Below, in pieces: positions 1-54,380 of a DNA stretch of 64,000 nucleotides; positions within the stretch are counted from its first letter, which is position 1; each line of letters starts with the position of its first letter. The notes under the pieces are model-generated. The model was not told the DNA's origin, did no database searches, and saw nothing but the letters and a program-made list of their open reading frames with translations. This DNA comes from Victivallales bacterium (GTDB taxonomy: Bacteria; Verrucomicrobiota; Lentisphaeria; Victivallales; UBA1829): contig JBGUKB010000068.1 of assembly GCA_045114235.1 (NCBI GenBank), forward strand, positions 15,606 through 79,605, written 5' to 3'. A program made the translations under genes and the position numbers.

Positions 1-425
1 CCCTGGGCCTGTTCGGCGAAGATGCCCTTCGCAAGTTTCGGCGCGGCGGGCGCATCGCGTTTTTCCAGCAGCGCGAGGTATTGGGGCAGGATGGTCCCGA
101 TGTCCTTCTTCTGCTCGTTGGTGAGCACGAGGTCGATGTCCTGGTTCTGCTCCAGTTCGTCCTTGCTCACGTCCGCGGCGCAGCCGGTGAAGACGATGAA
201 CGACTGCGGATTCTCCGCCCGGATGGAGCGGAGCGCCTGTTTGCTTTTCTTGTATGCCGTCTCGGTGACCGTGCAGGAGTTGACGAGGATGAGGTTCGGG
301 CTGCTGGAGGCATCCGGGGAAACGATCTGGAATCCGAGGCGGATCAGTCTGTCGTTCAGGAGCGCGCTGTCGGCCTGGTTGAGCCGGCAGCCAAGTGTTA
401 TGACCGCTGCAGTGATCGGTTTCAT
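1..425 (-). CDS. mtaB: tRNA methylthiotransferase MtaB/MiaB family, 5' part (runs off window start)
   Basis: Not in the ORF track. Manual translation from the ATG at 425 gives MKPITAAVITLGCRLNQADS...NSCTVT...VFTGC, the UPF0004 N-terminal domain with three conserved Cys. The CTVT motif is MtaB-like. Confidence 0.8.
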   Translation of the reverse strand, partial: MKPITAAVITLGCRLNQADSALLNDRLIRLGFQIVSPDASSSPNLILVNSCTVTETAYKKSKQALRSIRAENPQSFIVFTGCAADVSKDELEQNQDIDLVLTNEQKKDIGTILPQYLALLEKRDAPAAPKLAKGIFAEQAQ

Positions 426-452
426 GTTATGTTGCTATGAAGTGAAGTCTTG

Positions 453-490
453 AAAAAAGAAGCCCTGCCGGGGCGCGGACCTCGGCGTAT
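453..490 (-). terminator. probable intrinsic terminator after proA
   Basis: On the minus strand an imperfect GC hairpin is followed by CTTCTTTTTT, just downstream of the proA stop. Confidence 0.45.
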
Positions 491-513
491 TGAGCGGAGT
501 GTGAGGGTACGGA

Positions 514-1800
514 TCAGGAACGGATCTGGCCCGTCCCGTAGATCTTGTACTTGTAGGAAGTGAGTTCGGGGAGTCCCATCGGGCCGCGCGCGTGGAACTT
601 GTCCGTGCTGATGCCCATTTCCGCGCCCATGCCGAACTCGCCGCCGTCGGTGAAGCGCGTGGAGGCGTTCCAGTACACGGCCGCGGAGTCGACGTTGTCG
701 AGGAAGAACTGCGCGTTCGCCTCGTCGGTCGTGAGGATGCTGTCGCTGTGGCCGGAGCCGTAGCGGTTGATGTGGTCGACGGCCTCCTTCACGCCGGGGA
801 CGATGCCGACCGTGACGTCGAGCGTTCCGTATTCCTTCGGCCAGTCCTCCTCGGTGGCAGGGACGACCGCGACGGGCGCGGCGAGCTTCGCGAACGCCTC
901 GTCTGCGTGCATGGTCACACCGAGCTGCGCAAGCCTCGCGGCGAGTTTCGGGGCGAATTCGGGCGCGATCGAGGCGTCGATGAGGATGGTTTCCAGCGCG
1001 TTGCAGACGCTCGGGCGCTGGCATTTAGCGTTTTCGATGACCGTGAGCGCCTGGTCCTGGTCGCAGACGTGGTCCACGAAGATGTGGCACACGCCCTTGT
1101 AATGCTTAAGGACGGGCATCGTGGCCTGCTCGACCACGGCGCGGATCAGGCGTTCGCCGCCGCGCGGGATGACCAGATTGATGCAGTCGTTCATCTTCAG
1201 CATGGCGGAGACGGCATCATGTCCCTTGAACGGCACGAGCTGGAGCGCGCCTTCGGGCATACCGGCGGCGACTCCGGCATCGGAAATGCACTTCGCGAGC
1301 GCCGAGTTCGAGCGGAAAGCTTCTTTGCCGCCGCGCAGAATGACCGCGTTGCCGGACTTGATGCAGAGCCCGGCGGCGTCGACCGTCACGTTCGGGCGGG
1401 ATTCATAGATGATCGCGATGACGCCGATCGGCACGGAGACCTTGTCAATGCGGAGGCCGTTCGGGCGCGTGACGCTGGAGAGGATGCGGCCGACCGGATC
1501 GTCGAGCCCCGCCACATGGCGCAGGGCGTCCGCCACGTCCTTGACGCGTTTCGGCGTCAGCGTGAGGCGTTCCAGTTTCGGCGCGTCCAGGCCGTTCTGC
1601 TTGGCCTCTGCCAGGTCTTCGGCGTTGGCGGCCAGAATGATTTCCGTGTCGCGTTCGAGCGCATCGGCCATCGCATGCAGCCAGCGTGTGCGGCTGGCGG
1701 AATCGGCGACGGAGAGCGCACGGGAGGCGCGGAGGGCGCGGAGCCCGAGTTCGTGCATCGCTTCCCGCATGTCGGCTTCGTTGTTTGTTTCGCAGATCAT
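514..1800 (-). CDS. proA: gamma-glutamyl phosphate reductase
   Basis: Motifs IYESRPNVT, LRGGKEA, IPRGGERLI, NAKCQRPSVCNALE, NASTRFTDGGEFGMGAEMGIST and HARGPMGL. Confidence 0.97.
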   Translation of the reverse strand: MICETNNEADMREAMHELGLRALRASRALSVADSASRTRWLHAMADALERDTEIILAANAEDLAEAKQNGLDAPKLERLTLTPKRVKDVADALRHVAGLDDPVGRILSSVTRPNGLRIDKVSVPIGVIAIIYESRPNVTVDAAGLCIKSGNAVILRGGKEAFRSNSALAKCISDAGVAAGMPEGALQLVPFKGHDAVSAMLKMNDCINLVIPRGGERLIRAVVEQATMPVLKHYKGVCHIFVDHVCDQDQALTVIENAKCQRPSVCNALETILIDASIAPEFAPKLAARLAQLGVTMHADEAFAKLAAPVAVVPATEEDWPKEYGTLDVTVGIVPGVKEAVDHINRYGSGHSDSILTTDEANAQFFLDNVDSAAVYWNASTRFTDGGEFGMGAEMGISTDKFHARGPMGLPELTSYKYKIYGTGQIRS

Positions 1801-1948
1801 CTGATAACCCTGATGTTTGGTGCGCCGGAAACGGCTTTATGGAGGCTGATGTCCGGCGCGACGGCCCCGCAAAGCGGAACCCCGTGTGAAAGATTGTGCA
1901 TAATAAGATACTTATCCTTGACGGATTTGCAAATCAAAACAGGAAAAA

Positions 1949-3886
1949 TTATGCCTTTTTCCCCTGAAACGACAGCATCAGCAGGGAAAACAGCAGATAG
2001 GAATGGTCTTTTCCGCCGTTTTGATGCTCGTCGATCAGGCGTTCCAATGCGGTCCGGTCGAACATTGTCCAACGTTTCGGCAATTCGTCCAGCAGCGCCT
2101 CACACAGACGGTCGCGCCAAACGGTGCGGAACCACGCCGCCACCGGCACGCCGAATCCGCGTTTGCGGCGCAGGGCGAGCTTCGGCGGAAGAAGACCCAT
2201 GCCCTGTTCCTGCCGTTCTTGATCTGCAGAGGAACACCAGTCCGGGGATGGATAATCCGCGAACGCGTCGCCGAGGATGCGTTTCCGGCGGCCGTCATGG
2301 ATTTTGAACGAGACGGGGAGGGCACGCGCGAACCTGGAGACCTTCGGGTCAAGGAAGGGGTTCCGCACCTCGAGCGAGGCGGCCATGGAGCAGACGTCGA
2401 CCTTCGTCAGCACGTCGCCGGGCAGATACCGGCGCAGGTCGTCCTCCATCAGCGACGCCATGAGCTCGGCGGCATCCGGCAAATCGCGTCCGGCATTCAG
2501 ATACGGACGGAGATCCGGTGCGATCAGCCCGACGGATTCCGCCGCGAAATGCGACATCAGAGCGTCGTAGCGTGCGGCCGCGCCGGAGACCGCGCCAAGC
2601 CGCAGGAACCGTTTCAGCCGCCCCGCCTTGCTCCGTTCGCCCGAATCCGGCAGGCATGCCGCCGCAGCGTTCCAGAGGAATCCCGGCGTGAACGTCCGCA
2701 GGTTTTGAATCATGTGCATCGCGTGGTAGCGTTCATATCCGCCGAACAGTTCGTCCGCGCCGTCTCCGCTCAGGGCGACCGTAACATGCTCGCGGGCGAA
2801 CGCCGCAAGGAAATACGTCGGGAGCATGGAAGCGTCAGCGTAAGGTTCGCCGAACTCGGCGGCGAGCTTCGGCAGCAGGTCGAAATCCTGCGGCTGAACT
2901 GTCTTGATATGGTGATGCAGTCCGTGCGGGGCGGTTTTTGCGAGGTACGCCGCCGTGGCCTTGCAGTCGGCGCTTTCGTCGTAGCGCGGATCGTCGAACC
3001 CGATGGAGAAGCATTCCAGCGGGGCGGTCGAATGCTTTGCGGCGAGGGTTGCCACGATGGCGGAGTCCAGCCCGCCGGACAGGAAGACGCCCAGCGGCAC
3101 GTCGGCGACCATGCGGCGTTTCACGGCATCCGAAAGCAGATACTCCACGGTCCCGCAGGCGCCCAAGTAGGTGAAATTCTCCGCGCAGACCGCGAGGTCC
3201 GGCCCAGTTTGGATTTGCGCACCCAGTTCGATTTCGCGGACCGCGCCCGTTTCCAGTTCAAATTCGACCGCGGTCCCCGGACACAGTTTCTTTACGCCTT
3301 CGCGGATGGTGGCGGGCGCGGGGATATACTGGAACGCCAGATAGTCAGCAAGCGCCGGAAGCGAGACCGTTTCCGGGCACCCCGGACAGAGCGTGAGCGT
3401 AGCAAACCGGCTTGCGAATCCGAATTCCCCGGTCGGCAGGTGGAAATAATACAGTGGCTTCACGCCGTGGTAGTCGCGCGCCAGCAGGAGAGTTTTTTTC
3501 TCAGAATCATAAAACGCGAACGCGAAGAAGCCGTTGAGGCGCGTGAGACAGTCCGCGCCTTCGCGGATCAGGAGTTTCAGGAGAACCTCGGTGTCAGATT
3601 TCGTAAAAAATGATTCGCCCGCCTGTTCCAGTTCGGCGCGGAGTTCGCGGAAGTTGAAGATCTCGCCGTTGAAGACGAGCGTGTACCGGCCGTCGCCGCC
3701 CTGCATGGGCTGTGCGCCGCCGTCGAGGTCGATCACGGAGAGGCGTGTGTGGGCGAGTCCGAGCGAGCCGTCCAGATACGTGCCCTGCGCATCCGGCCCC
3801 CGCTGGCGCATCGTACAGCAAAGTGTTTGCAGAAACGCCGCATCGGGCGGAGTCCGCGGATTGAAACAGCCTGCGATCCCGCACAT
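1949..3886 (-). CDS. asnB: asparagine synthase (glutamine-hydrolysing) / amidotransferase
   Basis: N-terminal MCGIAG, RGPD, RLSVIDL, FNGEIFN, SDTEV, LSGGLDS and SGDGADELFGGY. Confidence 0.93.
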   Translation of the reverse strand: MCGIAGCFNPRTPPDAAFLQTLCCTMRQRGPDAQGTYLDGSLGLAHTRLSVIDLDGGAQPMQGGDGRYTLVFNGEIFNFRELRAELEQAGESFFTKSDTEVLLKLLIREGADCLTRLNGFFAFAFYDSEKKTLLLARDYHGVKPLYYFHLPTGEFGFASRFATLTLCPGCPETVSLPALADYLAFQYIPAPATIREGVKKLCPGTAVEFELETGAVREIELGAQIQTGPDLAVCAENFTYLGACGTVEYLLSDAVKRRMVADVPLGVFLSGGLDSAIVATLAAKHSTAPLECFSIGFDDPRYDESADCKATAAYLAKTAPHGLHHHIKTVQPQDFDLLPKLAAEFGEPYADASMLPTYFLAAFAREHVTVALSGDGADELFGGYERYHAMHMIQNLRTFTPGFLWNAAAACLPDSGERSKAGRLKRFLRLGAVSGAAARYDALMSHFAAESVGLIAPDLRPYLNAGRDLPDAAELMASLMEDDLRRYLPGDVLTKVDVCSMAASLEVRNPFLDPKVSRFARALPVSFKIHDGRRKRILGDAFADYPSPDWCSSADQERQEQGMGLLPPKLALRRKRGFGVPVAAWFRTVWRDRLCEALLDELPKRWTMFDRTALERLIDEHQNGGKDHSYLLFSLLMLSFQGKKA

Positions 3887-3889
3887 AGA

Positions 3890-4771
3890 TTATTCCCCCT
3901 TCTCCGCGATCGGGATATGCCGGGACTGACGCCGCCGGAGTTCCGCCGCCTCGTAGTCGGCTTTGGCACGCGGGATGAAACATGCGTCGAGGAAGCGTTC
4001 GAGGATGATTTCCCGCGCGAGCTCGGACGGATGGAGCATGTCCTCGGCGTAGAACCGGTAATCGCGCAATTCGTCGTTCAGGATCTCGAACGCGGGGAAA
4101 TACGCGCAGCCGTCGACCTTGGCGCAGACGTCCGCGGCCGCCGCCCGCAACCTCGCCTTCGAGAGCGAGTTCGTGGTCAGGTCGCCCGGATTGTGCCGTA
4201 CGGGCGACAACGTGATGATGATCGGGCACTTGGCGTTGTACGAACGGATGATCTCGCATGCGTTGCGCATCGCGGCGCGGCAGGTATCGTAGGACAGCAC
4301 GGACTGCTCGAACTCGCTGCCTGGCGCTTTGTGGCAGTTCGCGACCACGAGGCGTTCCGGCAGGTGCTTGTAGACGACCGCGGTCGACACGGTCATGAGG
4401 AAGAAGTCGGCTTTTTTTAGCACACGACGGAACCGTTTCGCGGATTCGTTGGCGTTTGCGGCTCCCTCGGCTGCACTCGCGGCGGAGAACGCTCCGTGGT
4501 GCCGCCACGAATGCCATAGCCCGTTCAGCTCGAAGAAATCGCTCTCCGTGTAGCCGCATTCCAGCCGCTGCAAAGCGTCGTTGATGGAGTACGGATTGTA
4601 CAGGATCCCGTTCGGATTGATCATGCCGCGCATGCCGCTGTTGAGCAGCGTCAGGGCGATATCCTGCGCGAAGCACGAGCCGATGGCGGCGAGCGTGCCC
4701 TGCGCCCGGATCTTCGGGAACGGGAAGGTGTAATTGACCGGGGTGTACGGGATGGAGCCTGATGTATTCAT
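3890..4771 (-). CDS. GSCFA domain protein (SGNH-hydrolase-like)
   Basis: Literal GSCFA motif, NPNGILYNP, TLSPVRH, YFPAFEI and DELRDYRFYAEDMLHPS. Confidence 0.9.
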   Translation of the reverse strand: MNTSGSIPYTPVNYTFPFPKIRAQGTLAAIGSCFAQDIALTLLNSGMRGMINPNGILYNPYSINDALQRLECGYTESDFFELNGLWHSWRHHGAFSAASAAEGAANANESAKRFRRVLKKADFFLMTVSTAVVYKHLPERLVVANCHKAPGSEFEQSVLSYDTCRAAMRNACEIIRSYNAKCPIIITLSPVRHNPGDLTTNSLSKARLRAAAADVCAKVDGCAYFPAFEILNDELRDYRFYAEDMLHPSELAREIILERFLDACFIPRAKADYEAAELRRRQSRHIPIAEKGE

Positions 4772-6972
4772 GTGAGCGGGCCTCCGGTGATGAGTTTTTC
4801 GAGCAGGAGCGAGTAGCGCGGTTCCCGGACGGCGTTGCGGACCGCCATGGAAACGGCCTTGCGCGAACCGACCAGGACCATGAGGCGTTTGGCGCGGGTG
4901 ATGCCGGTATAGAGCAGGTTCCGCTGGAGCATCATGTAGTGCTGGGACAGGATGGGCATGACGACCGCGGGGAATTCGCAGCCCTGGGATTTGTGGACGG
5001 TGACGGCGTAGGCGGGAACGATCTGCTCCGCCTCCTCGAACCGGTATTCGACCAACGGGCCGGACTCGTAGCGAACCTGGAATGATTCGTTCTGGAAGTC
5101 GATGCGCCCGAGGAATCCCATGTCGCCGTTGAACACGTTCTTGTCGTAGTTGTTCACGATTTGCATGACCTTGTCGCCGGTCTTGAACAGGCGGCCAAGC
5201 GAACGGAACACGAACTTCTTCTCCGGGTTCAGTTTCTCCTGCAGCAGTTCGTTCATCGCCTGCGTCCCGACCGCGCCGCGGTTCATCGGGCAGAGCAGCT
5301 GCACGTCGCGGACCGGGTCGAGCCCGAACCGGCGAGGGATGCGGTCGGTGATCATGCGTTCGATCACGTCTGCGGCGTCCTCCGGATCGTCCTTCTCGAT
5401 CCAGTAGAAATCAGCCTGCGCATCCTTCGCGCGGCGGGGCAGACGCGGCACGACGCCGTTGTTCACGTCGTGGGCGGCGTGGATAATGCCGCTGCCGTCG
5501 CCCTGCCGGAATATCTGTGTGAGGCGGGAAACCGGGCAGACACCCGATGCGATGAGGTCGTTCAGGACATTGCCGGGGCCAACGGACGGGAGCTGGTCCG
5601 GATCGCCCACGATCACGACGGACGCCCCCGGCTTCACTGCGCGGAAGAACGCCAGCGCGAGCAGGATGTCGAGCATGGACGTCTCGTCCAGCACATACAG
5701 GTCGTAGGGCAGCTGGTTGCCGCGCCCGAACACGAACTTGCGGGCGGCGGGGTCCCATTTGAGCAGGCGGTGGATCGTGAACGAGGTCAGCCCGGTAGCT
5801 TCGGTCATGCGCTTCGCGGCGCGTCCGGTCGGAGCCGCCAGCGCGATCGAAAGATGCGACAGTTTCGCGCGGCGGACGATCTCCGAGACGACCGTGGTCT
5901 TGCCGACGCCGGGTCCGCCCGTAATGATCGTAATGGGGGACTGGGACACACGGTCGACGGCGAGGAGCTGTTCGGAGCTGAATTTCGAGTTCGGCGGGGC
6001 GGGGATTTGCGCGAGCTTCATCCCGGCGTAGCGGTCGCGCGACTGGAGGAACCGGATGAGGAAGGGCAGTTCGTCCTCGCAGCGGAGGAGCCCCGGCTCG
6101 TAGATCATCACGTCGCCTTCGTGCGAAACGCAGGACGCCGCGCGCTTCGTTTCCAGCGCCTTTTCGATGGCGGCGCCCGCGTCGGCCTCGTCCACCTCGA
6201 GCAGTTCCGCCAGGAACTTGACGAAAACCGCCTGCGGCATGCAGACGTGTCCGGCCTGACGCGCCTGAAGGAGTCCGTAGGTCACACCCGCGGTCATGCG
6301 GCGCACGTCGTTGCGTCCGATGCCAAGCTGGCGCGCGATCTTGTCCGCGTAGGTAAACCCGATGCCCTTGATGTCGGCGGCGAGCCGGTAGGGGTTCCCC
6401 TTGATGACCTCGGGGGCCTCGTTGCCGTACTTGTCGTAGATGCGTACGAACCAGGCGGGATTGATGCCGAGGCCCTGAAGATAGATCTGGCTTTCGCGGC
6501 GGTCGGAATTCTCCTTCCACGCCTTGCGGATGGCCTCGATGCGTTTCTTGCCGAGGCCGGGGACTTCCTTCAGGCGGCGCGACTGCTGGTTCAGCACGGT
6601 CAGCGTGTCCGTGCCAAACGTGTCGACGATGGACTTGGCGTACTTCTCGCCGATGCCCTTCACGACCCCGCTGGAAAGATACTTGATGAGGCCGTCGCGC
6701 GTGGCAGGGAGCGAGAACTCGCACGAGCTCACGCGGAACTGACGTCCGTGGTCCTTGTGCATCTCCCACTTGCCGGAGAGCCGGACCGTCTGGCCGGGGG
6801 AAAGCCCCGGCACGGTCCCGACGGCGGTATGTACGGCGCCCTGAGGGTCCCGCAGGCGGAACACGGTGTACGAGGCGTCCTCGCTTTCGTACACGACGTG
6901 CTCCACTTCTCCGTTGAGCTTATGCTCGGCGAGAGAGGCGCTTCCGGATCCGGTGCCGAGTTCGTCCGTCAT
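4768..6972 (-). CDS. recD2: ATP-dependent RecD-like DNA helicase (RecD2)
   Basis: N-terminal OB and HhH regions (GIGEK, GLGKK, NPYRL, GIGFTYAD), Walker A GGPGVGKT, DETSM, GDPDQLPSVGPG, HKSQGCEF and LLYTGITRA. Confidence 0.95.
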   Translation of the reverse strand: MTDELGTGSGSASLAEHKLNGEVEHVVYESEDASYTVFRLRDPQGAVHTAVGTVPGLSPGQTVRLSGKWEMHKDHGRQFRVSSCEFSLPATRDGLIKYLSSGVVKGIGEKYAKSIVDTFGTDTLTVLNQQSRRLKEVPGLGKKRIEAIRKAWKENSDRRESQIYLQGLGINPAWFVRIYDKYGNEAPEVIKGNPYRLAADIKGIGFTYADKIARQLGIGRNDVRRMTAGVTYGLLQARQAGHVCMPQAVFVKFLAELLEVDEADAGAAIEKALETKRAASCVSHEGDVMIYEPGLLRCEDELPFLIRFLQSRDRYAGMKLAQIPAPPNSKFSSEQLLAVDRVSQSPITIITGGPGVGKTTVVSEIVRRAKLSHLSIALAAPTGRAAKRMTEATGLTSFTIHRLLKWDPAARKFVFGRGNQLPYDLYVLDETSMLDILLALAFFRAVKPGASVVIVGDPDQLPSVGPGNVLNDLIASGVCPVSRLTQIFRQGDGSGIIHAAHDVNNGVVPRLPRRAKDAQADFYWIEKDDPEDAADVIERMITDRIPRRFGLDPVRDVQLLCPMNRGAVGTQAMNELLQEKLNPEKKFVFRSLGRLFKTGDKVMQIVNNYDKNVFNGDMGFLGRIDFQNESFQVRYESGPLVEYRFEEAEQIVPAYAVTVHKSQGCEFPAVVMPILSQHYMMLQRNLLYTGITRAKRLMVLVGSRKAVSMAVRNAVREPRYSLLLEKLITGGPLT

Positions 6973-47044: not shown

Positions 47045-47950
47045 TCAGCAAAAGTTGACGAAGAGGACCTCCGGGGGACAGCAGATGCGTGCGTGGAACC
47101 AGGTCGCACCGATGCCGGCGGACACGTACATCGTCGCCCCGGTCGAGCTGTGCCGGAAAGCGCCATATTCCAGGCGTTTTCCGTACCGCGAGGACGTCAT
47201 GACCGCGCCGAACCCGGGGATCCGGAACTGGCCGCCGTGCGTGTGGCCGCAGAGGATCAGGGGCGCACCCTTCAGCTTGTCCGTAAGAAGCATGGCAGCC
47301 GCCGTGTCGGGATTGTGCGAGAGCACGCATACGTTCTCGGATTGCGGGATCGACGCTTCGCCGGAAAGCCCGCCGCCTTCCTTGGCGTCGTCCATGCCAT
47401 GGAACAGGATTCCATGTGATTCGGCGGTCTCGTTCAGGAGAAGCTTAAACCCGGTTGAGGTGAAAAGCCCGCGCCAGCGTTCCGCGGGCATCCATTTGCG
47501 GCGGAGCTCCCAGTTTCCGCAGGCCGCGAACTTGTCCGGGCCGGACGGGATGGTACGCAGGAAATCAAGCGACTTGCCGATCCACGCGGCATCTCCGGAA
47601 AGGTCCCCGCCAAACGCGATGCTGTCCGGCATCGGGATCGCCTCGAACAGCTCGTGAAATGCCTTCGTAAGCCATTCCGTCCCACCGCCCTGCCGCATGG
47701 CAGGAAAAAAACCGCGGATGCCCGCCGTCCGGATGTGCGTATCGGAGAAGAACAGCAGGGTGCGCCCGGCGAGACACGGCTTGGAAACGCGAAGGAAACG
47801 GACGTGCAGGCCGGACGGAAGCACGCGCGTCTCCTTCAGAAGCGAAGGATCGGGCTGCCAGAGCAAAGCGCCGGAACGCTGCTCCGCCGTCAGCTTCGTC
47901 TTCTGTTTCCGGACATAGATCCGGGATTTGAACGGGGAAACGTCCGACAT
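47045..47950 (-). CDS. YkuE-like calcineurin-type metallophosphoesterase
   Basis: FSDTH, GGDL, CGNWE, LSHNPD, CGHTHGGQ and YVSAGIG; start uncertain. Confidence 0.8.
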   Translation of the reverse strand: MSDVSPFKSRIYVRKQKTKLTAEQRSGALLWQPDPSLLKETRVLPSGLHVRFLRVSKPCLAGRTLLFFSDTHIRTAGIRGFFPAMRQGGGTEWLTKAFHELFEAIPMPDSIAFGGDLSGDAAWIGKSLDFLRTIPSGPDKFAACGNWELRRKWMPAERWRGLFTSTGFKLLLNETAESHGILFHGMDDAKEGGGLSGEASIPQSENVCVLSHNPDTAAAMLLTDKLKGAPLILCGHTHGGQFRIPGFGAVMTSSRYGKRLEYGAFRHSSTGATMYVSAGIGATWFHARICCPPEVLFVNFC

Positions 47951-47972
47951 GGCCGGCACGCGGGCGACGGAC

Positions 47973-50153
47973 TCAGTCGCCGGAAAGCTCTTTGACCATT
48001 TCGGCCGGCAGCGGCTCAAGCTTCGCGATCACGCATTCGCCGAGTTCGGGCAGCTTGACCTTTTCGCCGACCTTGTGTTCCACGAGAGCCTGTCCGAGCG
48101 GAGCCTTGTAGGCGATGCGGCCGCGGTCGACGTCGCCGTCCCAGGCGCCGAGGATGTAGTAGGAAATCTCCTTGCCGTTGGCGTCCTTCAGGAAGACGCG
48201 ACAGCCCGGCACGACAGTGTCGGAGAGCTCGACGTCGCTGAAATTCGTGACATCCATGAAACCGAGCGATTTTTCGAGCTCGGAACGGCGTCTCTGGAGG
48301 AAGCGGCGCTGCTCTTTCGCGGCGTCGTATTCCGCATTTTCGCGAAGGTCGCCGAAGCTTCTTGCGTACGCCACGGCCTCGGCGTTCTGCGGGATCAGGA
48401 CTTCGATGAGGTTCTTGAGTTCGGCCTGCATGCGTTTCTGCGAGGCGAACGACGCGATCGGAGGCTGTTCCGTGTTGCCGGCGGCATGGATGCCGAGGAG
48501 CTTGCTGCCTTCGCCGCTTTCGATGTATTCCATGAATTCCGGCGAGACGCGGCCCATCTTGACCATGACGCTCTGGAGCTCGCTGGCCTGCGTACGGAAT
48601 TTCTGAAGGCTGCCGACGATGGACGGGATATCGCCGTCGGCGTTCTCGATCAGGTATTTGCGGAAATCGGCCTTTTCGCCGAGGAGGATGCGTTTGAGTT
48701 CGCGCTGGGCGGCGCCCCATTCCTTCGGGAGATCAGAGCGGTTCAGGGCGGCGACGACGGTCTCCATGTCGACCAGCGAGGTGATGATCTTCGATTTGAT
48801 GCGCGCCTTGTTCTTCCAGATCCAGAGGCAGACGTCGGCGGAAAGGGTGTCCATCGCGGCGATCTTGGTGATGATGCTCTGGACAAGCGCGGCGTCCGCG
48901 GCTTCGCGCGCGGCGGCGTCTTCCTTCGTTTCGGACGCGGCTTTCTTCCGCGGCTCGAAGAAGACGGTCATGCAGCGGAGCGGGAGCATCAGGCCGAGGG
49001 AGACGAATTCGTCCTGCGTGTAGATGGCGCGGGTGGCGGCAAGAAGGCCGTCGAGGTCCTTCACGGAGATCTTCGCCCAGATCGCGAGGTTCGCGAGCTT
49101 GACGCCTTCGGGGATCGAAGCGGGCCAGAACGGGACCTGACCGCGGAGCGGAGTGAACATCGCGGCGAGGTCTTCCGGCGCGGCGTCGAGGGAAAGCCAG
49201 GAGATGGATTCGGCGAGCATCTGGACATCCTTCGGGAGGAGCCTGGAGCTGACGCGAACGAACAGCTTTCCGAGCTTTTCGGCGGCCGCGGCGTCGACGG
49301 CCACGGCATTGCCGCCGTCCACGATGCCCTTCAGGAGCGTATAAAGCTCAAGCACGCTGCGGGAATCGCTGAAATGACGTTTCCCGCCTGCCGAAGCGGC
49401 CGCGGGCGACGCGTCCCACCAGGCGGCGAATGCGGAGGAAGTCAGATACTGCGGCACCAGAAGACGCTGCACAAGCTCCTGAAGCTTCTGTTCCGGCACG
49501 TCGGAAAGCGCCAGACGGTTCAGGACGCGGCGGTATTCGGAGGAGGAACGGATCGAGGATCCGAGCGGGGAGATCAGCTCCATGAGCTCGGGCGTGGTCT
49601 CGAAGAAATAGGCGGAAACGATCGCCGACGCGATCGGAATGGAGGAGGAGCCGGAACCGTCGATCGGGGTCACGGCGATGGTGCCGGTCACGCGGTCGAT
49701 GCCCGTGATGCGTCCGCACAGCCCGGTCTCCTGCTGGTACATGATCGCGGTCGAGCGCAGGCGCTGGAGTTTCTTGAGGCGGAGCGCGACTTCGCGGACG
49801 CCGACGTTCGCGTCTTTCGCGCCGAGGGCCTTCACGACCGCGCCGCTGACCAGGTAGGGAGGAAGCAGCTTGCGGACCGCATAGTTCAGCGAGCTGCGGA
49901 AATTCGCGGAATCCAGGATGGAGAGTTCGGCGATCCGGACACAGAATTTCGCCTTGTCGAGGGAGGCGGAAATCTGGTCGTCCCACGCCTCGAACAAAGC
50001 TTCGAACTGGGGCGCGGCGGCGCGGAGTTCCTGAATGCCGTCCGCGGTTCCCAGACGGTTGACGCGGTCAAACAGGACACTGACAGCGTCGTCGTGCTGT
50101 TCCAGTTGAGCGTACAGGATCAGGTCCGGCAGAGAAAAGTCATTGATACTCAT
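47973..50153 (-). CDS. greA: GreA/GreB transcription elongation factor with large N-terminal extension
   Basis: C-terminal AYARSFGDLRENAEYDAAKEQ, VVPGCRV, YYILGAWD and IAYKAPLGQAL; about 570 aa N-terminal region; start at MSINDF. Confidence 0.85.
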   Translation of the reverse strand: MSINDFSLPDLILYAQLEQHDDAVSVLFDRVNRLGTADGIQELRAAAPQFEALFEAWDDQISASLDKAKFCVRIAELSILDSANFRSSLNYAVRKLLPPYLVSGAVVKALGAKDANVGVREVALRLKKLQRLRSTAIMYQQETGLCGRITGIDRVTGTIAVTPIDGSGSSSIPIASAIVSAYFFETTPELMELISPLGSSIRSSSEYRRVLNRLALSDVPEQKLQELVQRLLVPQYLTSSAFAAWWDASPAAASAGGKRHFSDSRSVLELYTLLKGIVDGGNAVAVDAAAAEKLGKLFVRVSSRLLPKDVQMLAESISWLSLDAAPEDLAAMFTPLRGQVPFWPASIPEGVKLANLAIWAKISVKDLDGLLAATRAIYTQDEFVSLGLMLPLRCMTVFFEPRKKAASETKEDAAAREAADAALVQSIITKIAAMDTLSADVCLWIWKNKARIKSKIITSLVDMETVVAALNRSDLPKEWGAAQRELKRILLGEKADFRKYLIENADGDIPSIVGSLQKFRTQASELQSVMVKMGRVSPEFMEYIESGEGSKLLGIHAAGNTEQPPIASFASQKRMQAELKNLIEVLIPQNAEAVAYARSFGDLRENAEYDAAKEQRRFLQRRRSELEKSLGFMDVTNFSDVELSDTVVPGCRVFLKDANGKEISYYILGAWDGDVDRGRIAYKAPLGQALVEHKVGEKVKLPELGECVIAKLEPLPAEMVKELSGD

Positions 50154-50214
50154 AGTGAGTCGTCTCCTTCGACGTCGGTTAGTCAAATAGCATTTGTGAT
50201 TTATATAACTAATT

Positions 50215-50243
50215 AATGTACACCTGATCCGGCGTTTTTTCAA
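50215..50243 (-). promoter_or_regulatory. sigma70-type promoter of greA
   Basis: TTGAAA-17 bp-TACATT with an extended TG. Confidence 0.65.
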
Positions 50244-50371
50244 GCTTTTTTTCGGAACGGGGAGCGATTTTTCCCGCTTTTTGATTTGATTTTTTTTCGG
50301 AAAGAACTATGTTTATTATTTGTCTTCCGTTTTCAACAACCCTTTTTCAGCACGATCCGGAGTCCTGCGCC

Positions 50372-51613
50372 ATGGAATCATTCGACGTCATCATCTGCGG
50401 AAGCGGTCCCGCCGGGCTCGCCGCCGGACTTGCGGCCGCCTCGCACGGCGCCTCAACGGCCATCCTGGACCCGAACTACGTCATCGGTCGCAAACTGTGC
50501 GCGACGGGCAACGGACGCTGCAATTTCTCCAATACTCTGCCGCCGCTCAAGTTCATGGCGGAATTCGGACGGCACGGACGGTTCATGACCGACGCCCTGC
50601 GCGCCGCGCCGCGCGAATTCTTCCTGGACCTGCTTCAGAAGGAAGGCATCCGCCCGACGGTCGAGAACGAAATCCACTATTTCCCCATGAACGGACGGGC
50701 TTCCGACGTCCGCGACGCATTCCTGCGTGCGGCGAAGCGCGCCGGGGCGGAAACACGCCTGTCCGTGTCCGCACGGCGCATCCTCGTGGAAAAAGGGACT
50801 GCTACCGGCGTCGAAACGGACGGGGGCGAGGTTATTAAAGCTCCACACGTGATCCTGGCATGCGGCGGCACGGCGGCGCCTTCGCTCGGCGGCACGGCGT
50901 CCGGGCTGGATCTCGCCAAAGCCCTCGGACACGGCGTCCGCGAACCCGTCGCTACGCTGGCTCCGATCCACGTCGACAACCCGTGGATATCCGAGCTCGC
51001 CGGACTGACCGTGCCGGACGCCGAGCTCGGCGTCATGGTCGGGACCCGCCATGTTTTCATGCGCGGCAGCCTGCTCTTCACGCACACCGGGTTTTCCGGT
51101 CCGGCGGCGCTGAACCTCTCCGGCACGGTGAACCGCGTCCTTTTGGAAGGAAAGCCCGCCCAGATTTTCCTGCGCGTCCTGCCGGACAAAAAGGAACAGA
51201 ACCTGTACGACTATCTGGTCGACGAACGGGAAAAAGTGCCGGACCACCTGCTGAAGAACTCCCTCGCACGCATCATACCGCGTTCGCTGGCGTCGCTCGT
51301 CTGCGAACGCCTCTTCGGGGAGGATTTCCATTCCAAACGCCTCACGAACGCCGGAGCACACGAGCTGGCGCATCTGCTGGACCGGATGCCGTTCACGGTG
51401 TCGAAGCCGGCCACCATGGACGAGGCGATGGCGATGGACGGCGGCGTCCTGCTGAAGGAAGTCGATCCGCGCACGATGGAAAGCCGGCTGGTCAAAGGCG
51501 TGCATTTCGCCGGGGAGATCCTCGACCTGACCGGGCCGACCGGGGGGTTCAACATCCAGTTCGCGCTGTCAAGCGGACGCCTCGCGGGCCTCGCCGCGGC
51601 TGGGGCGCTGTAG
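50372..51613 (+). CDS. HI0933/BaiN-family NAD(P)/FAD-dependent oxidoreductase
   Basis: ICGSGPAGL, GRKLCATGNGRCNFSN, LLFTHTGFSGP, TMESRLVKG.HFAGEILD.TG.TGGFNIQ.A.SSG. Confidence 0.92.
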   Translation: MESFDVIICGSGPAGLAAGLAAASHGASTAILDPNYVIGRKLCATGNGRCNFSNTLPPLKFMAEFGRHGRFMTDALRAAPREFFLDLLQKEGIRPTVENEIHYFPMNGRASDVRDAFLRAAKRAGAETRLSVSARRILVEKGTATGVETDGGEVIKAPHVILACGGTAAPSLGGTASGLDLAKALGHGVREPVATLAPIHVDNPWISELAGLTVPDAELGVMVGTRHVFMRGSLLFTHTGFSGPAALNLSGTVNRVLLEGKPAQIFLRVLPDKKEQNLYDYLVDEREKVPDHLLKNSLARIIPRSLASLVCERLFGEDFHSKRLTNAGAHELAHLLDRMPFTVSKPATMDEAMAMDGGVLLKEVDPRTMESRLVKGVHFAGEILDLTGPTGGFNIQFALSSGRLAGLAAAGAL

Positions 51614-51635: not shown

Positions 51636-52802
51636 TTAACGGGGAAACAACGATCCGGGCGGCGGCGGATTTGGCTGTTTCAATTTGACGAGCGCAGATT
51701 CCAGCCAGACTCGGAACGATACGCCGCGCATGCGGCATTCGTCCGCACAGATCGCGAGCATGGCAAACGGATCGGCGACGGGCGTTTCCGGGTTCGCGCG
51801 GGACAGTTCCAGCCTTGGATCGTACAGGAATTCGGAAAGGCTCCTTTCGTGCTCGACTGCATGACGGAGCGCCTCGGCGAGAGGCGAACGCGGATCCTGA
51901 GCGGGCAGCATTTCCCGGCAACGTTCCAAGATCTTCGCCACGATCCGTGCCGATTCGATGCGGACGGCGCGGCGTTCACGGTACAGGTCCTCCGGCGCAC
52001 CGCCAAGGCGTTCCGCGCGGAGACGGGCATGATCCTCCAGTTCACACAGAGCATGAATCCTCTGCAGGAACTCGTCGGCGAGCCAGTCGCCGCCGGCTTT
52101 TGCATCCTCGAACATGCGACGGAGATTCGACCAATCGGGAAGCGTCCGCACGACCATGGCAGAGCAAACGGGAGCGATCGTCTCCGCCGCGGCCAGGAGC
52201 AGCCCGCGCAGGGCGGATTCGGAGATCACGAGCCCGGATTCCAGCTTCAGGCGTTCGGAGATCGTACGGAATGCCATGCCCGCCAGGTGATAATCCGTCA
52301 CGTAAGCGACAAACGAGGCGTCGAACTGGTGAACACCGCCGGACGGATCGGGAAACAACGCCGGACCGGGCGCGGCGGCGGACGATCCCGAACCGTCGTT
52401 GGCCGCATACATCGCGCGGCGGAATGTCCGCCGGACAAGAGCGGAACGCACCGCGACCGCTTCCGACGTTTCGAAAGCAATGACTGACATCCCGGCGGAT
52501 TTGGCGGACGGGAGTTCCAGATTCACCTCGTCGGAAGGAAGATCCGGCGGAACGGAGGCCGGTTCGGAGACGTGGTATGACGCGGCGGATTCATGCAGCG
52601 CACCGGACGTCTTGTCCGGGACTCCATGCGGACGTAAATCCGCAGCAGCTTCTTCTTCCACGGACGGAAGCACATACAATCCGGGCATGACACGTCCGTA
52701 GGCCTGACGCGAAAGAAGATCGATCGTCTTCTTCAGCGCGACATTCTCGTGCTGACTGGCTTCAAGCTCGCGTTCGAGCTCCGATTTCCGGTCGGACGGC
52801 AT
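51636..52802 (-). CDS. IS66 TnpC transposase-derived protein lacking the catalytic core
   Basis: N-terminal coiled coil LLSRQAYGR; LP.DEVNLE, ETSE, ISESAL, LRRMFEDA, IHAL.ELE, PRSPLAEAL.HA and FLYDPRLELS; no DET/DGY core; no TIRs or tnpA/tnpB. Confidence 0.65.
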   Translation of the reverse strand: MPSDRKSELERELEASQHENVALKKTIDLLSRQAYGRVMPGLYVLPSVEEEAAADLRPHGVPDKTSGALHESAASYHVSEPASVPPDLPSDEVNLELPSAKSAGMSVIAFETSEAVAVRSALVRRTFRRAMYAANDGSGSSAAAPGPALFPDPSGGVHQFDASFVAYVTDYHLAGMAFRTISERLKLESGLVISESALRGLLLAAAETIAPVCSAMVVRTLPDWSNLRRMFEDAKAGGDWLADEFLQRIHALCELEDHARLRAERLGGAPEDLYRERRAVRIESARIVAKILERCREMLPAQDPRSPLAEALRHAVEHERSLSEFLYDPRLELSRANPETPVADPFAMLAICADECRMRGVSFRVWLESALVKLKQPNPPPPGSLFPR

Positions 52803-52835
52803 AGGAGTCGGGGGTATCTTCTGCCGGAAACAGAA

Positions 52836-54197
52836 TCACAGGCCGAAGAATGCCAGCGGCCCGTCGTAGCACATGGTCTTCGCGAGCTTCACGGCGACGG
52901 GCTCCGGCATCTGCCCGGCCTCGACCATGCCGCCGAGCGTGGAGGAAAGTATTCTGCGGAACATCTCGAACCGGGAACCGTAGCTCAGGAGCTTGCGGGA
53001 ATCCGAGACCATGCCGGCGAACGCGCTCAGCAGGTCGACGCTGCCGATGTATTCGAGCTGGCGTTTCATGCCGATGGGCGTGTCGCAGAGCCACCAGGCG
53101 GAGCCGAGGCGGACCGTGCTGCCGAACGCGCGTGAAAGCGCGGCGAGCGTGGCCTGATGCACCTGGTCCAGGCAGTACAGCACGACCTTCAGGCGGCCGT
53201 CGAACCGGTTCAGGAACCGGATGAGCTTCGCCTCGTGCGACTGGAAAAGATCGCTTACGTCGCCGCCGGAATCCGGCCCGATCGTGCGGAAAAGATAATC
53301 GCGGACGTCGCGGACGGCGCCCATGTGGAGCTGCATCACCCAGCCGCTCCGGCTGTTCATCTCGCCGAATTCGCCGAGCAGATAGTCCGCGTAGTTCGCG
53401 GTTTCCTCAGGAGAGACGGATTCGCCCGCGAGGGCCTTGCGGAACGTCTCCGCGGCGGCCGCGGCGTCGCCGGTCCCGCTGGACGCGAGTTCGAGCCCGT
53501 GGTCGCTGGCGCGGCAGCCGTTCCCGGCAAAGAAATCATGGGATTTCTGAAGGACGTCCAGCAGTTCGGCAAGCGTAGTGATCCTGACGCTCCAGCGTTT
53601 GCCGAGGCGTTCGATATACGCAGGGAATCCGGGTTTCCCAGCCTTCATGGCCGCATCGGGACGCCAGGTCGGGCGCACGACCGTCCGCCCGAAATTCTCG
53701 TTGACGGCCTTATGGTATTCGAGCGTGTCGGCGGGGTCGTCGGTCGAGCACATCACGCCGACGTTCATGCGTTTCAGGAGCGCCTGCGGCCTGCTTTCCT
53801 CCTTCGAAAGGATATCATTGACTTTTTTCCAGATCAGTTCGCCCGTCTCCGCGCTCAGCAGCTCTTCGACGCCCAGGAACCGGAGGTCGAGGTGGATCCA
53901 CTCGTAGACCGGATTCCCGGCGATCCGGTCGAAGACTTCCGCCATGGCGATGAACTTGTCATGCGGGGACGCGCCGCCGGTGATCTTCTCCTCCGGCACG
54001 CCCGTCTTCCGCAGGACTTCCCAGACATAGTGGTCCGTGGCGGCGAAGAGCTCCCACGCATCCTTGAAGTTTTCGTTGCGCGCGATGGCCGCGACATCTG
54101 CGTGGTTGTGCGGATCGAGGATGGGGAGGTCTTTGACCGAGGCGAAGATGCGTTTTCCGGTTTCGTTGGCGATAAGGTAGTCCTGACCGAGGAACAT
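52836..54197 (-). CDS. uxaC: glucuronate (uronate) isomerase
   Basis: PILDPHNH, TDHYVW, GNPVYEWIHLDL, STDDPAD, PTWRPD, SDHG, MQLHMG, GSAWW.CD, GMVSDSR.LLSY and FRRIL. Confidence 0.95.
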   Translation of the reverse strand: MFLGQDYLIANETGKRIFASVKDLPILDPHNHADVAAIARNENFKDAWELFAATDHYVWEVLRKTGVPEEKITGGASPHDKFIAMAEVFDRIAGNPVYEWIHLDLRFLGVEELLSAETGELIWKKVNDILSKEESRPQALLKRMNVGVMCSTDDPADTLEYHKAVNENFGRTVVRPTWRPDAAMKAGKPGFPAYIERLGKRWSVRITTLAELLDVLQKSHDFFAGNGCRASDHGLELASSGTGDAAAAAETFRKALAGESVSPEETANYADYLLGEFGEMNSRSGWVMQLHMGAVRDVRDYLFRTIGPDSGGDVSDLFQSHEAKLIRFLNRFDGRLKVVLYCLDQVHQATLAALSRAFGSTVRLGSAWWLCDTPIGMKRQLEYIGSVDLLSAFAGMVSDSRKLLSYGSRFEMFRRILSSTLGGMVEAGQMPEPVAVKLAKTMCYDGPLAFFGL

Positions 54198-54380
54198 GGC
54201 GAATCCTTTCATTTACAATACAAAAGTCCGTTGGTTTCAGGGAAATAATATAACTGAACTCCGTGAAAAATACAAGCGGAAACGCATGAATCCCCGGAGA
54301 ATCCGTTTGGAAAACGCGCCCGGACCGGCGGGATCCGCATACTCGGATTCGCCGTCGCGCAATGAAACGGTCAGCCGAAC

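Follow-up and report, generated by a model that had tools for sequence, protein, structure and literature searches.

A core-deleted IS66 TnpC derivative beside uxaC, a probable domesticated host gene in a genus of rumen Lentisphaeria

The 64,000-nucleotide stretch analysed here (the window; contig JBGUKB010000068.1, positions 15,606 to 79,605, of the Victivallales bacterium assembly GCA_045114235.1) carries on its minus strand, at 51636..52802, an open reading frame (ORF) of 388 amino acids plus stop, running from ATG to TAA, that derives from TnpC, the transposase of IS66 insertion sequences (IS), and has lost the catalytic core of that enzyme. The host genus consists of uncultured rumen Lentisphaeria, and in it the ORF is very probably a domesticated (exapted) gene, kept by selection as part of the host genome. 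Its co-directional upstream neighbour is uxaC, encoding glucuronate isomerase (52836..54212, minus strand; Pfam UxaC, E 1.2e-138; NCBIfam, 462 bits). On the other side, a convergent gene for an HI0933-like flavin adenine dinucleotide (FAD) flavoprotein (50309..51613, plus strand, assigned by Pfam and NCBIfam searches) has its stop codon 22 nt from that of the TnpC-derived ORF.

The spacer that separates the uxaC stop codon from the start codon of the ORF (52803..52835, minus strand) measures 33 nt and contains a C-rich tract, without any promoter-like site or Shine-Dalgarno-like motif. Among 13 loci this spacer ranges from 33 to 53 nt and is partly conserved in sequence. A scan for promoters and terminators gave nothing between uxaC and the ORF, and the sole sigma-70-like site on the minus strand was found at 55185-55157, upstream of a CI-like gene. 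A spacer this short, with no promoter-like site, suggests co-transcription, and in most species the ORF is probably transcribed together with uxaC. A purine run resembling a Shine-Dalgarno sequence is also missing before the ATG in the orthologous spacers, which share a partly conserved TTCCGGCAGAAG motif and, in most species, a C-rich tract (CCCCCCGAT) directly before the start codon.

No mobile-element hallmarks accompany the ORF. Pfam and NCBIfam annotation placed neither tnpA nor tnpB at the locus, and a search for flanking terminal inverted repeats returned only G+C-rich pairs at chance level, none of them plausible. The G+C content at the ORF (about 0.63) equals the local average in a genome of 63% G+C. 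A first-pass annotation of the window, made from the sequence alone, had described an intact 388-aa ORF collinear with IS66 TnpC, tightly downstream of uxaC and free of inverted repeats or tnpA/tnpB; all of this is borne out, with the ORF on the minus strand.

Homology to IS66 TnpC extends over the whole length of the protein. Pfam DDE_Tnp_IS66 (PF03050) matches only residues 224-334, covering profile positions 153-255 of 284 (E 5.4e-10), with a score of 39.6 bits above the cut-off of 23.1. BLASTP against a sister-genus TnpC of 512 aa, encoded by a classical three-ORF IS66 element (L018), aligned residues 23-217 of the ORF with 38-240 and residues 224-374 with 326-493. Profile-profile comparison by hhalign, using 45 members of the ORF family (columns 8-392) and 17 full-length IS66 TnpC proteins (columns 17-510), confirmed the relationship with 375 collinear columns, a probability of 100% and an E-value of 2.6e-47. 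The resulting family alignment is collinear from end to end and is interrupted by two clean in-frame gaps of 83 and 18 columns.

The larger gap removes the H.DET and D.Y motifs, including the invariant aspartates D243 and D301 (residues of the full-length set are numbered as in P0135). The smaller gap removes R..alGRKNwLF, the loop that follows the catalytic glutamate. Invariant among the 17 full-length relatives are D243, D301, E438, C322, W323, H325, R328, N450 and F453. The third catalytic residue, E438, corresponds to E339 of the ORF and is kept in just 71% of family members, and the counterpart of the CWAH motif reads D-W-S-N in the ORF and D-W-x-N in the family, with an invariant tryptophan and a retained RR pair. 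The first-pass annotation had listed DET, DGY and CWAH as lost from the central segment: the first two are indeed gone in frame, and the third survives in this altered form. Around 60 other positions reach a conservation of 95% or more in the family and not among transposases (for example N-D-G-S-G, L-F-P-D-P-S-G-G, G-D-W and A-L-E-H-E), as would be expected of a protein with a changed function. Identity to any full-length relative is only 25-31%.

The protein falls outside the functional IS66 transposases, because it lacks a complete DDE triad on an RNase-H fold, scores 44 bits against the cut-off of 180 for the curated equivalog model NF033517, has no surrounding element and shows no sign of mobility, being present as one copy in its own genome, at a fixed locus and with a tree congruent with its neighbours. 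It cannot catalyse transposition. The zinc-finger cysteines, whose absence had been read as a further step of domestication, are likewise missing from the parental side. More specifically, the CxxC pairs and any zf-IS66 Pfam match are absent from the L018 TnpC as well as from the six full-length IS66 relatives closest to the ORF, all of which keep the LZ, DDE and C-terminal domains. The nearest zinc-finger-less relatives are the full-length proteins P0131-P0138 together with the L018 TnpC. The parent thus belonged to a zinc-finger-less IS66 subgroup, and loss of the cysteines predates domestication.

With the two deletions placed, the remaining architecture can be read along the minus strand, and it follows that of IS66 TnpC (Pfam LZ_Tnp_IS66, DDE_Tnp_IS66 and DDE_Tnp_IS66_C; NCBIfam NF033517). 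An AlphaFold2 (AF2) model of the ORF product, with a mean predicted local distance difference test (pLDDT) score of 80.9, begins with a long N-terminal helix (residues 8-35, 52698..52781; ..LSRQ.YGR) that aligns with the LZ_Tnp_IS66 region. Residues 38-80 (52563..52691) form a low-confidence linker (pLDDT <50) that is probably disordered. It is followed by a beta-hairpin domain (residues 86-161, 52320..52547; strands 90-95, 105-118 and 122-134), which occupies the position of zf-IS66, is free of cysteines and carries the family-specific invariants NDGSG and LFPDPSGG. The next segment is helical and resembles a helix-turn-helix (HTH) motif (residues 162-220, 52143..52319; helices 162-173, 178-189 and 195-220); it aligns with P0135 residues 176-235 and is equivalent to the initial ~60 positions of Pfam DDE_Tnp_IS66.

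The junction of the 83-residue deletion lies between T220 and L221 (52142..52143; alignment A1 columns 299-383, and a gap in hhalign), where strands beta1-beta5 with the first two catalytic aspartates (D1 and D2) are gone. Beyond it, residues 221-335 (51798..52142), which include the Pfam match, represent the all-alpha insertion domain of the DDE transposase and are modelled as a four-helix bundle. This bundle keeps W224, R228-R229, E256, R277 and R281, as in TnpC, and gains an invariant G-D-W at 238-240. A remnant of the catalytic-Glu helix (N-P-E-T, E339) adjoins the junction of the 18-residue deletion (51765..51794; A1 columns 508-525, also seen by hhalign). The C-terminal helices (residues 345-385, 51648..51770) are the counterpart of DDE_Tnp_IS66_C, with invariant E355-C356, F363, W366 and L385-x-P387, of which C356, L385 and P387 are shared with the tail of TnpC. 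In contrast to TnpC, the ORF product has neither the RNase-H beta-sheet with D1 and D2 nor the RKNWLF loop, its third catalytic residue is not conserved, it is acidic instead of basic, and its gene sits as a single copy at a fixed chromosomal locus without tnpA, tnpB or inverted repeats.

What the larger deletion took away was examined in an AF2 model of the full-length relative P0135 (pLDDT 84), which matches the transposases of ISCth4 (IS256), Hermes and the P element with E-values from 1.7e-8 to ~1e-3. In this model the deleted stretch holds strands 239-250, 257-267, 274-279, 297-299 and 318-320 and helices 284-291 and 304-311, together the canonical RNase-H beta1-beta5 core. As these strands coincide with the gap, the first deletion comprises the whole catalytic sheet and nothing else. 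The model of the ORF product had no Foldseek match in the PDB at E <= 0.001, the best relevant hit being ISCth4 at E 0.23 over 119 columns. A wide VIA-align search with it returned only generic four-helix-bundle matches over residues 221-332 (Z 8-10), below the level that is meaningful for helical bundles. Neither structure search pointed to a function, and a profile search of PDB sequences gave no matches.

The ORF is a genus-wide feature. Apart from the single copy in the genome of the window, the 15 other species of the genus include 14 with an ortholog, in each case a single full-length match without stops, and identity ranges from 87% to 35%; in the draft genome G015 a contig end holds a further, partial match. 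All genomes are draft metagenome-assembled genomes (MAGs) in which repeats may be under-assembled, so that statements on single copy number and on the absence of active IS66 carry lower confidence. The core-deleted form was not found by family-profile search in 44 genomes of 11 sister genera. There, the matches split into two blocks within frames of 490-549 aa, as is characteristic of full-length IS66, and occur in 14 of the 44 genomes with up to seven matches each.

An exhaustive search of 1.84 billion cluster representatives yielded just two other full-length clusters at 50% identity that are core-deleted (P0122 and P0129), and the matches that come next are real transposases at ~30% identity. 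Metagenomes contribute more than 120 family clusters at 90% identity, with lengths of 370-457 aa, one of which is named 'transposase [Lentisphaeria bacterium]'. The distant matches P0147, P0152, P0162, P0165 and P0170 were screened for further core-deleted IS66 families and proved to be ordinary full-length proteins or fragments only.

Within the genus itself, full-length IS66 is scarce. Neither TnpB_IS66 nor full-length IS66 of the parental subgroup was found in the 16 genomes, and full-length IS66 DDE matches occur in two of them, with weak scores of 88-102 bits. One of these two lies in the genome of the window (L020; genome G000, contig C33, 2789 bp), where a full-length IS66-type transposase of 457 aa (848-2221, plus strand; DDE_Tnp_IS66, 88 bits) has a weak zf-IS66 match, and its subgroup differs from that of the parent of the domesticated gene. 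A DUF6788 ORF (340-693, plus strand) precedes it in place of tnpA/tnpB.

Synteny with uxaC, which the first-pass annotation had noted in the window alone, extends through the genus. The ORF adjoins uxaC in 13 of the 14 species that have it, and the order of uxaC, ORF and convergent flavoprotein gene is kept in all 12 loci with both flanks. The flavoprotein gene is present at 12 of the 13 loci with flanking DNA, the locus in G011 (L014) giving no match. The tree of the ORF is largely congruent with that of uxaC and the flavoprotein and recovers the same main clades; pairwise distances correlate with a Spearman coefficient of 0.92, a value that is descriptive only, the genomes being related. The ORF is thus inherited vertically within the genus. 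In the closest species (L002, G001:C43, ~117-1456), tblastn split uxaC into two pieces, covering query 1-208 and 179-458, that overlap and differ in register, which suggests a frameshift or an assembly error in uxaC; the TnpC-derived gene beside this split uxaC is intact, with 87% identity.

The gene also persists in other genomic settings. In the main clade the ORF follows uxaC in the same direction. In the G011/P0120 clade (~51-57% identity), uxaC alone is inverted and stands divergent from the ORF across an AT-rich spacer of 146-159 bp (L014 in G011, 2998-5774; L025, 4480-7251), and the downstream neighbours are genes for a thioredoxin-like protein and an Fe-only hydrogenase instead of the flavoprotein. 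In the deep-branching G007, the family member is 406 aa long, shows the same 83-residue gap and is flanked by genes for a CDF transporter and a GH5 cellulase; uxaC is present in G007, unlinked to the ORF and with other neighbours. On the P0090 contig (ENA ERZ27256983) the ORF is immediately preceded by a cluster of small ORFs, a reverse transcriptase (RVT_1) and a patatin-like gene among them, and no uxaC lies within 6 kb upstream; this cluster is possibly a defence island that entered the locus by insertion. Both uxaC and the TnpC-derived gene are absent from G008, which also branches deeply. G007 and G008 are far more distant than the other members of the genus, their flavoprotein being ~50% identical, compared with 83-94% in the others.

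The protein sequence is under purifying selection, also between species that stand dS 0.4-1.0 apart. Pairwise NG86 estimates of the ratio of nonsynonymous to synonymous substitution rates (dN/dS), combined with bootstrapping, range from 0.15 to 0.41 for the ORF at dS 0.16-1.07, with 95% upper limits of 0.25-0.50 in six phylogenetically separate pairs. For the neighbours the ratio is 0.05-0.15 (uxaC) and 0.06-0.21 (flavoprotein); the ORF evolves 2-3 times faster than they do, so that the constraint on it is moderate. Values stay below 1 in every domain: the helical bundle is the most constrained (0.05-0.37), the N-terminal helix shows 0.14-0.50, and the linker is the least constrained (0.26-0.60). 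Variable sites make up 0.58, 0.51 and 0.90 of codon positions 1, 2 and 3, respectively. No in-frame stop occurs in the 14 orthologs, while the other five frames contain 1-14 stops with one exception, and all length changes across the 14 species and the more than 120 metagenomic clusters are in frame.

These observations leave domestication of the ORF well supported, in that a transposase-derived gene without mobile-element hallmarks is present as a syntenic single-copy ortholog across species and is held by purifying selection. It appears to be a clear and so far undescribed bacterial host gene made from a transposase. No description of an IS66-derived host gene was found in the literature, which is weak evidence of novelty since many subscription papers lay outside our coverage. 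As to its history, the parent was the TnpC of an IS66 element from a zinc-finger-less subgroup, which is commonly met as full-length copies among the sister genera in this bacterial family. The ancestral element lost tnpA, tnpB and its ends before the genus diversified, after which two in-frame deletions cut out the RNase-H beta-sheet and the loop after the catalytic-Glu helix. The long N-terminal helix, the beta-hairpin domain, the HTH-like segment, the all-alpha insertion domain and the C-terminal helices were left. The product presumably acts as a non-catalytic binding protein and probably self-associates through its N-terminal helix.

What the protein does can be proposed with much less assurance than its domestication. 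Our leading guess, which we hold tentatively, is a sequence-specific DNA-binding or regulatory factor, possibly with a role linked to uxaC, that reuses the end-binding module of the transposase with changed specificity. This fits the finding that the N-terminal half, expected to bind transposon ends and to multimerise, is both kept and constrained, and it fits the suggested co-transcription with uxaC. A co-opted DNA-binding or regulatory protein had also been proposed in the first-pass annotation; co-option is upheld by the orthologs, their vertical inheritance and the dN/dS values, and the DNA-binding part has been weakened. Several observations weigh against it. The isoelectric point (pI) of the family is 5.3-5.6 versus 6.9-8.6 in transposases, the net charge of the helical domain runs from -4 to +2, with negative values in four of five members tallied, versus +5 to +9, no retained domain is clearly basic, and the HTH-like segment has other residues in place of the IS66-invariant K186, P192 and R195. 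Moreover, adjacency to uxaC could merely mark an old insertion site. A purely protein-binding role is about as likely.

A more special form of domestication would be a host-encoded dominant-negative inhibitor of IS66 transposition, that is, transposon immunity. A core-less TnpC that keeps the multimerisation and end-binding parts would poison the transpososomes of incoming IS66 of the parental subgroup. The architecture, all of TnpC minus the catalytic sheet, is what such an inhibitor would look like, and the distribution of the presumed target is in keeping with it: the parental subgroup is full-length and often present in several copies per genome among the 14 sister-genus genomes that carry it, and it was not found in the genus, where TnpB_IS66 is likewise missing and the sole two full-length DDE matches are weak, the one in L020 belonging to the other, zinc-finger subgroup. 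However, the low identity to full-length relatives and the ~60 invariant positions of its own make co-assembly with a modern IS66 transposase doubtful, and steady purifying selection over dS ~1 is hard to explain without a resident target element. Furthermore, the genomes are small MAGs (2.0-3.2 Mb) whose scarcity of IS may reflect streamlining or assembly, and counts over related genomes are not independent. We therefore consider this function unlikely.

Another proposal is that the protein has a functional tie to uxaC, as a regulator or accessory factor devoted to hexuronate metabolism. The adjacency in nearly all species with the ORF speaks for such a tie, as does its survival through the inversion, which produced a divergent pair with a shared AT-rich spacer of the kind seen in many regulator-target pairs, and the joint absence of uxaC and ORF from G008. 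The tie is broken, however, in G007, where uxaC has no ORF nearby and the ORF lies between the transporter and cellulase genes, and on the P0090 contig, where the ORF stands behind the reverse-transcriptase/patatin island. No other hexuronate genes occur in the neighbourhood, a CI/LexA-like HTH gene is already present upstream of uxaC, and the original insertion site can explain the adjacency, all of which makes this role improbable.

That the ORF is instead a functionless relic of an old IS66 insertion by uxaC, its frame spared from stop codons by chance, the DNA being G+C-rich, or through hitch-hiking with uxaC, is very improbable and largely refuted by the dN/dS values with their bootstrap limits of at most 0.50 and by the codon-position and stop patterns, to which the in-frame length changes and the survival of the gene through rearrangements that separate it from uxaC or invert it add further weight, even though long spurious ORFs are common in this genome (such as a 762-aa frame antisense to a 756-aa ORF at 47928-50243), amino-acid identity is much lower for the ORF (67-87%) than for its neighbours (92-95%), and NCBI names a family member simply 'transposase'.

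Well-documented cases of DDE transposase domestication are common in eukaryotes and rare in bacteria, where broken transposase genes normally just decay. Truncated transposase inhibitors are found within active elements, including Tn5 Inh, IS1 InsA, IS3/IS911 OrfA and the P-element KP repressor. Like the ORF product, these retain the regions by which a transposase binds and multimerises, and lack its catalytic activity. They are, however, products of a mobile element that act on that same element, whereas the ORF is an immobile, vertically inherited chromosomal ortholog whose parental element was not found in the genus.

A closer parallel in terms of genomic fate is offered by the TnpB-like nuclease-dead repressors (TldR), in which a transposon-encoded bacterial nuclease without catalysis has become fixed beside particular host genes in a lineage and is conserved as a host gene (bioRxiv 10.1101/2023.11.30.569447). 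The parent of TldR is the RuvC-type, RNA-guided TnpB of IS200/IS605, in contrast to the unrelated DDE transposase from which the ORF descends. TldR keeps its fold and remains RNA-guided, whereas the catalytic sheet of the ORF product is physically excised and no guide RNA is known. With some reserve, we suggest that excision of the RNase-H sheet may have turned a DDE transposase into a non-catalytic host factor whose end-binding and oligomerisation modules now have a cellular role, be it as a transcription or chromosome-binding factor at the uxaC locus or as a fixed 'vaccine' against the parental IS66 lineage. If so, this would be the first IS66-derived host protein family and the DDE-transposase counterpart of the TnpB-derived TldR repressors.

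The evidence for the case is unusually clean: the catalytic sheet has been excised with precision, and the gene is syntenic throughout the genus, descends vertically, is under purifying selection and has persisted through rearrangements. It provides a defined family of more than 120 sequence clusters in which to ask what the non-catalytic parts of an IS66 transposase do for the cell. It also calls for a correction of public annotation, where members are labelled 'transposase' though unable to transpose, which inflates IS counts in rumen Lentisphaeria MAGs.

The wider region of the window has a housekeeping character, with genes for glutaminyl-tRNA synthetase (GlnRS), a metallophosphatase, a long GreA fusion, the CI-like HTH protein, MoxR with DUF58, and topoisomerase I. 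The GreA fusion is the 756-aa ORF mentioned above (47973-50243, minus strand), in which the GreA N- and C-terminal domains are confined to the C-terminus (residues 602-731), behind a long uncharacterised N-terminal region.

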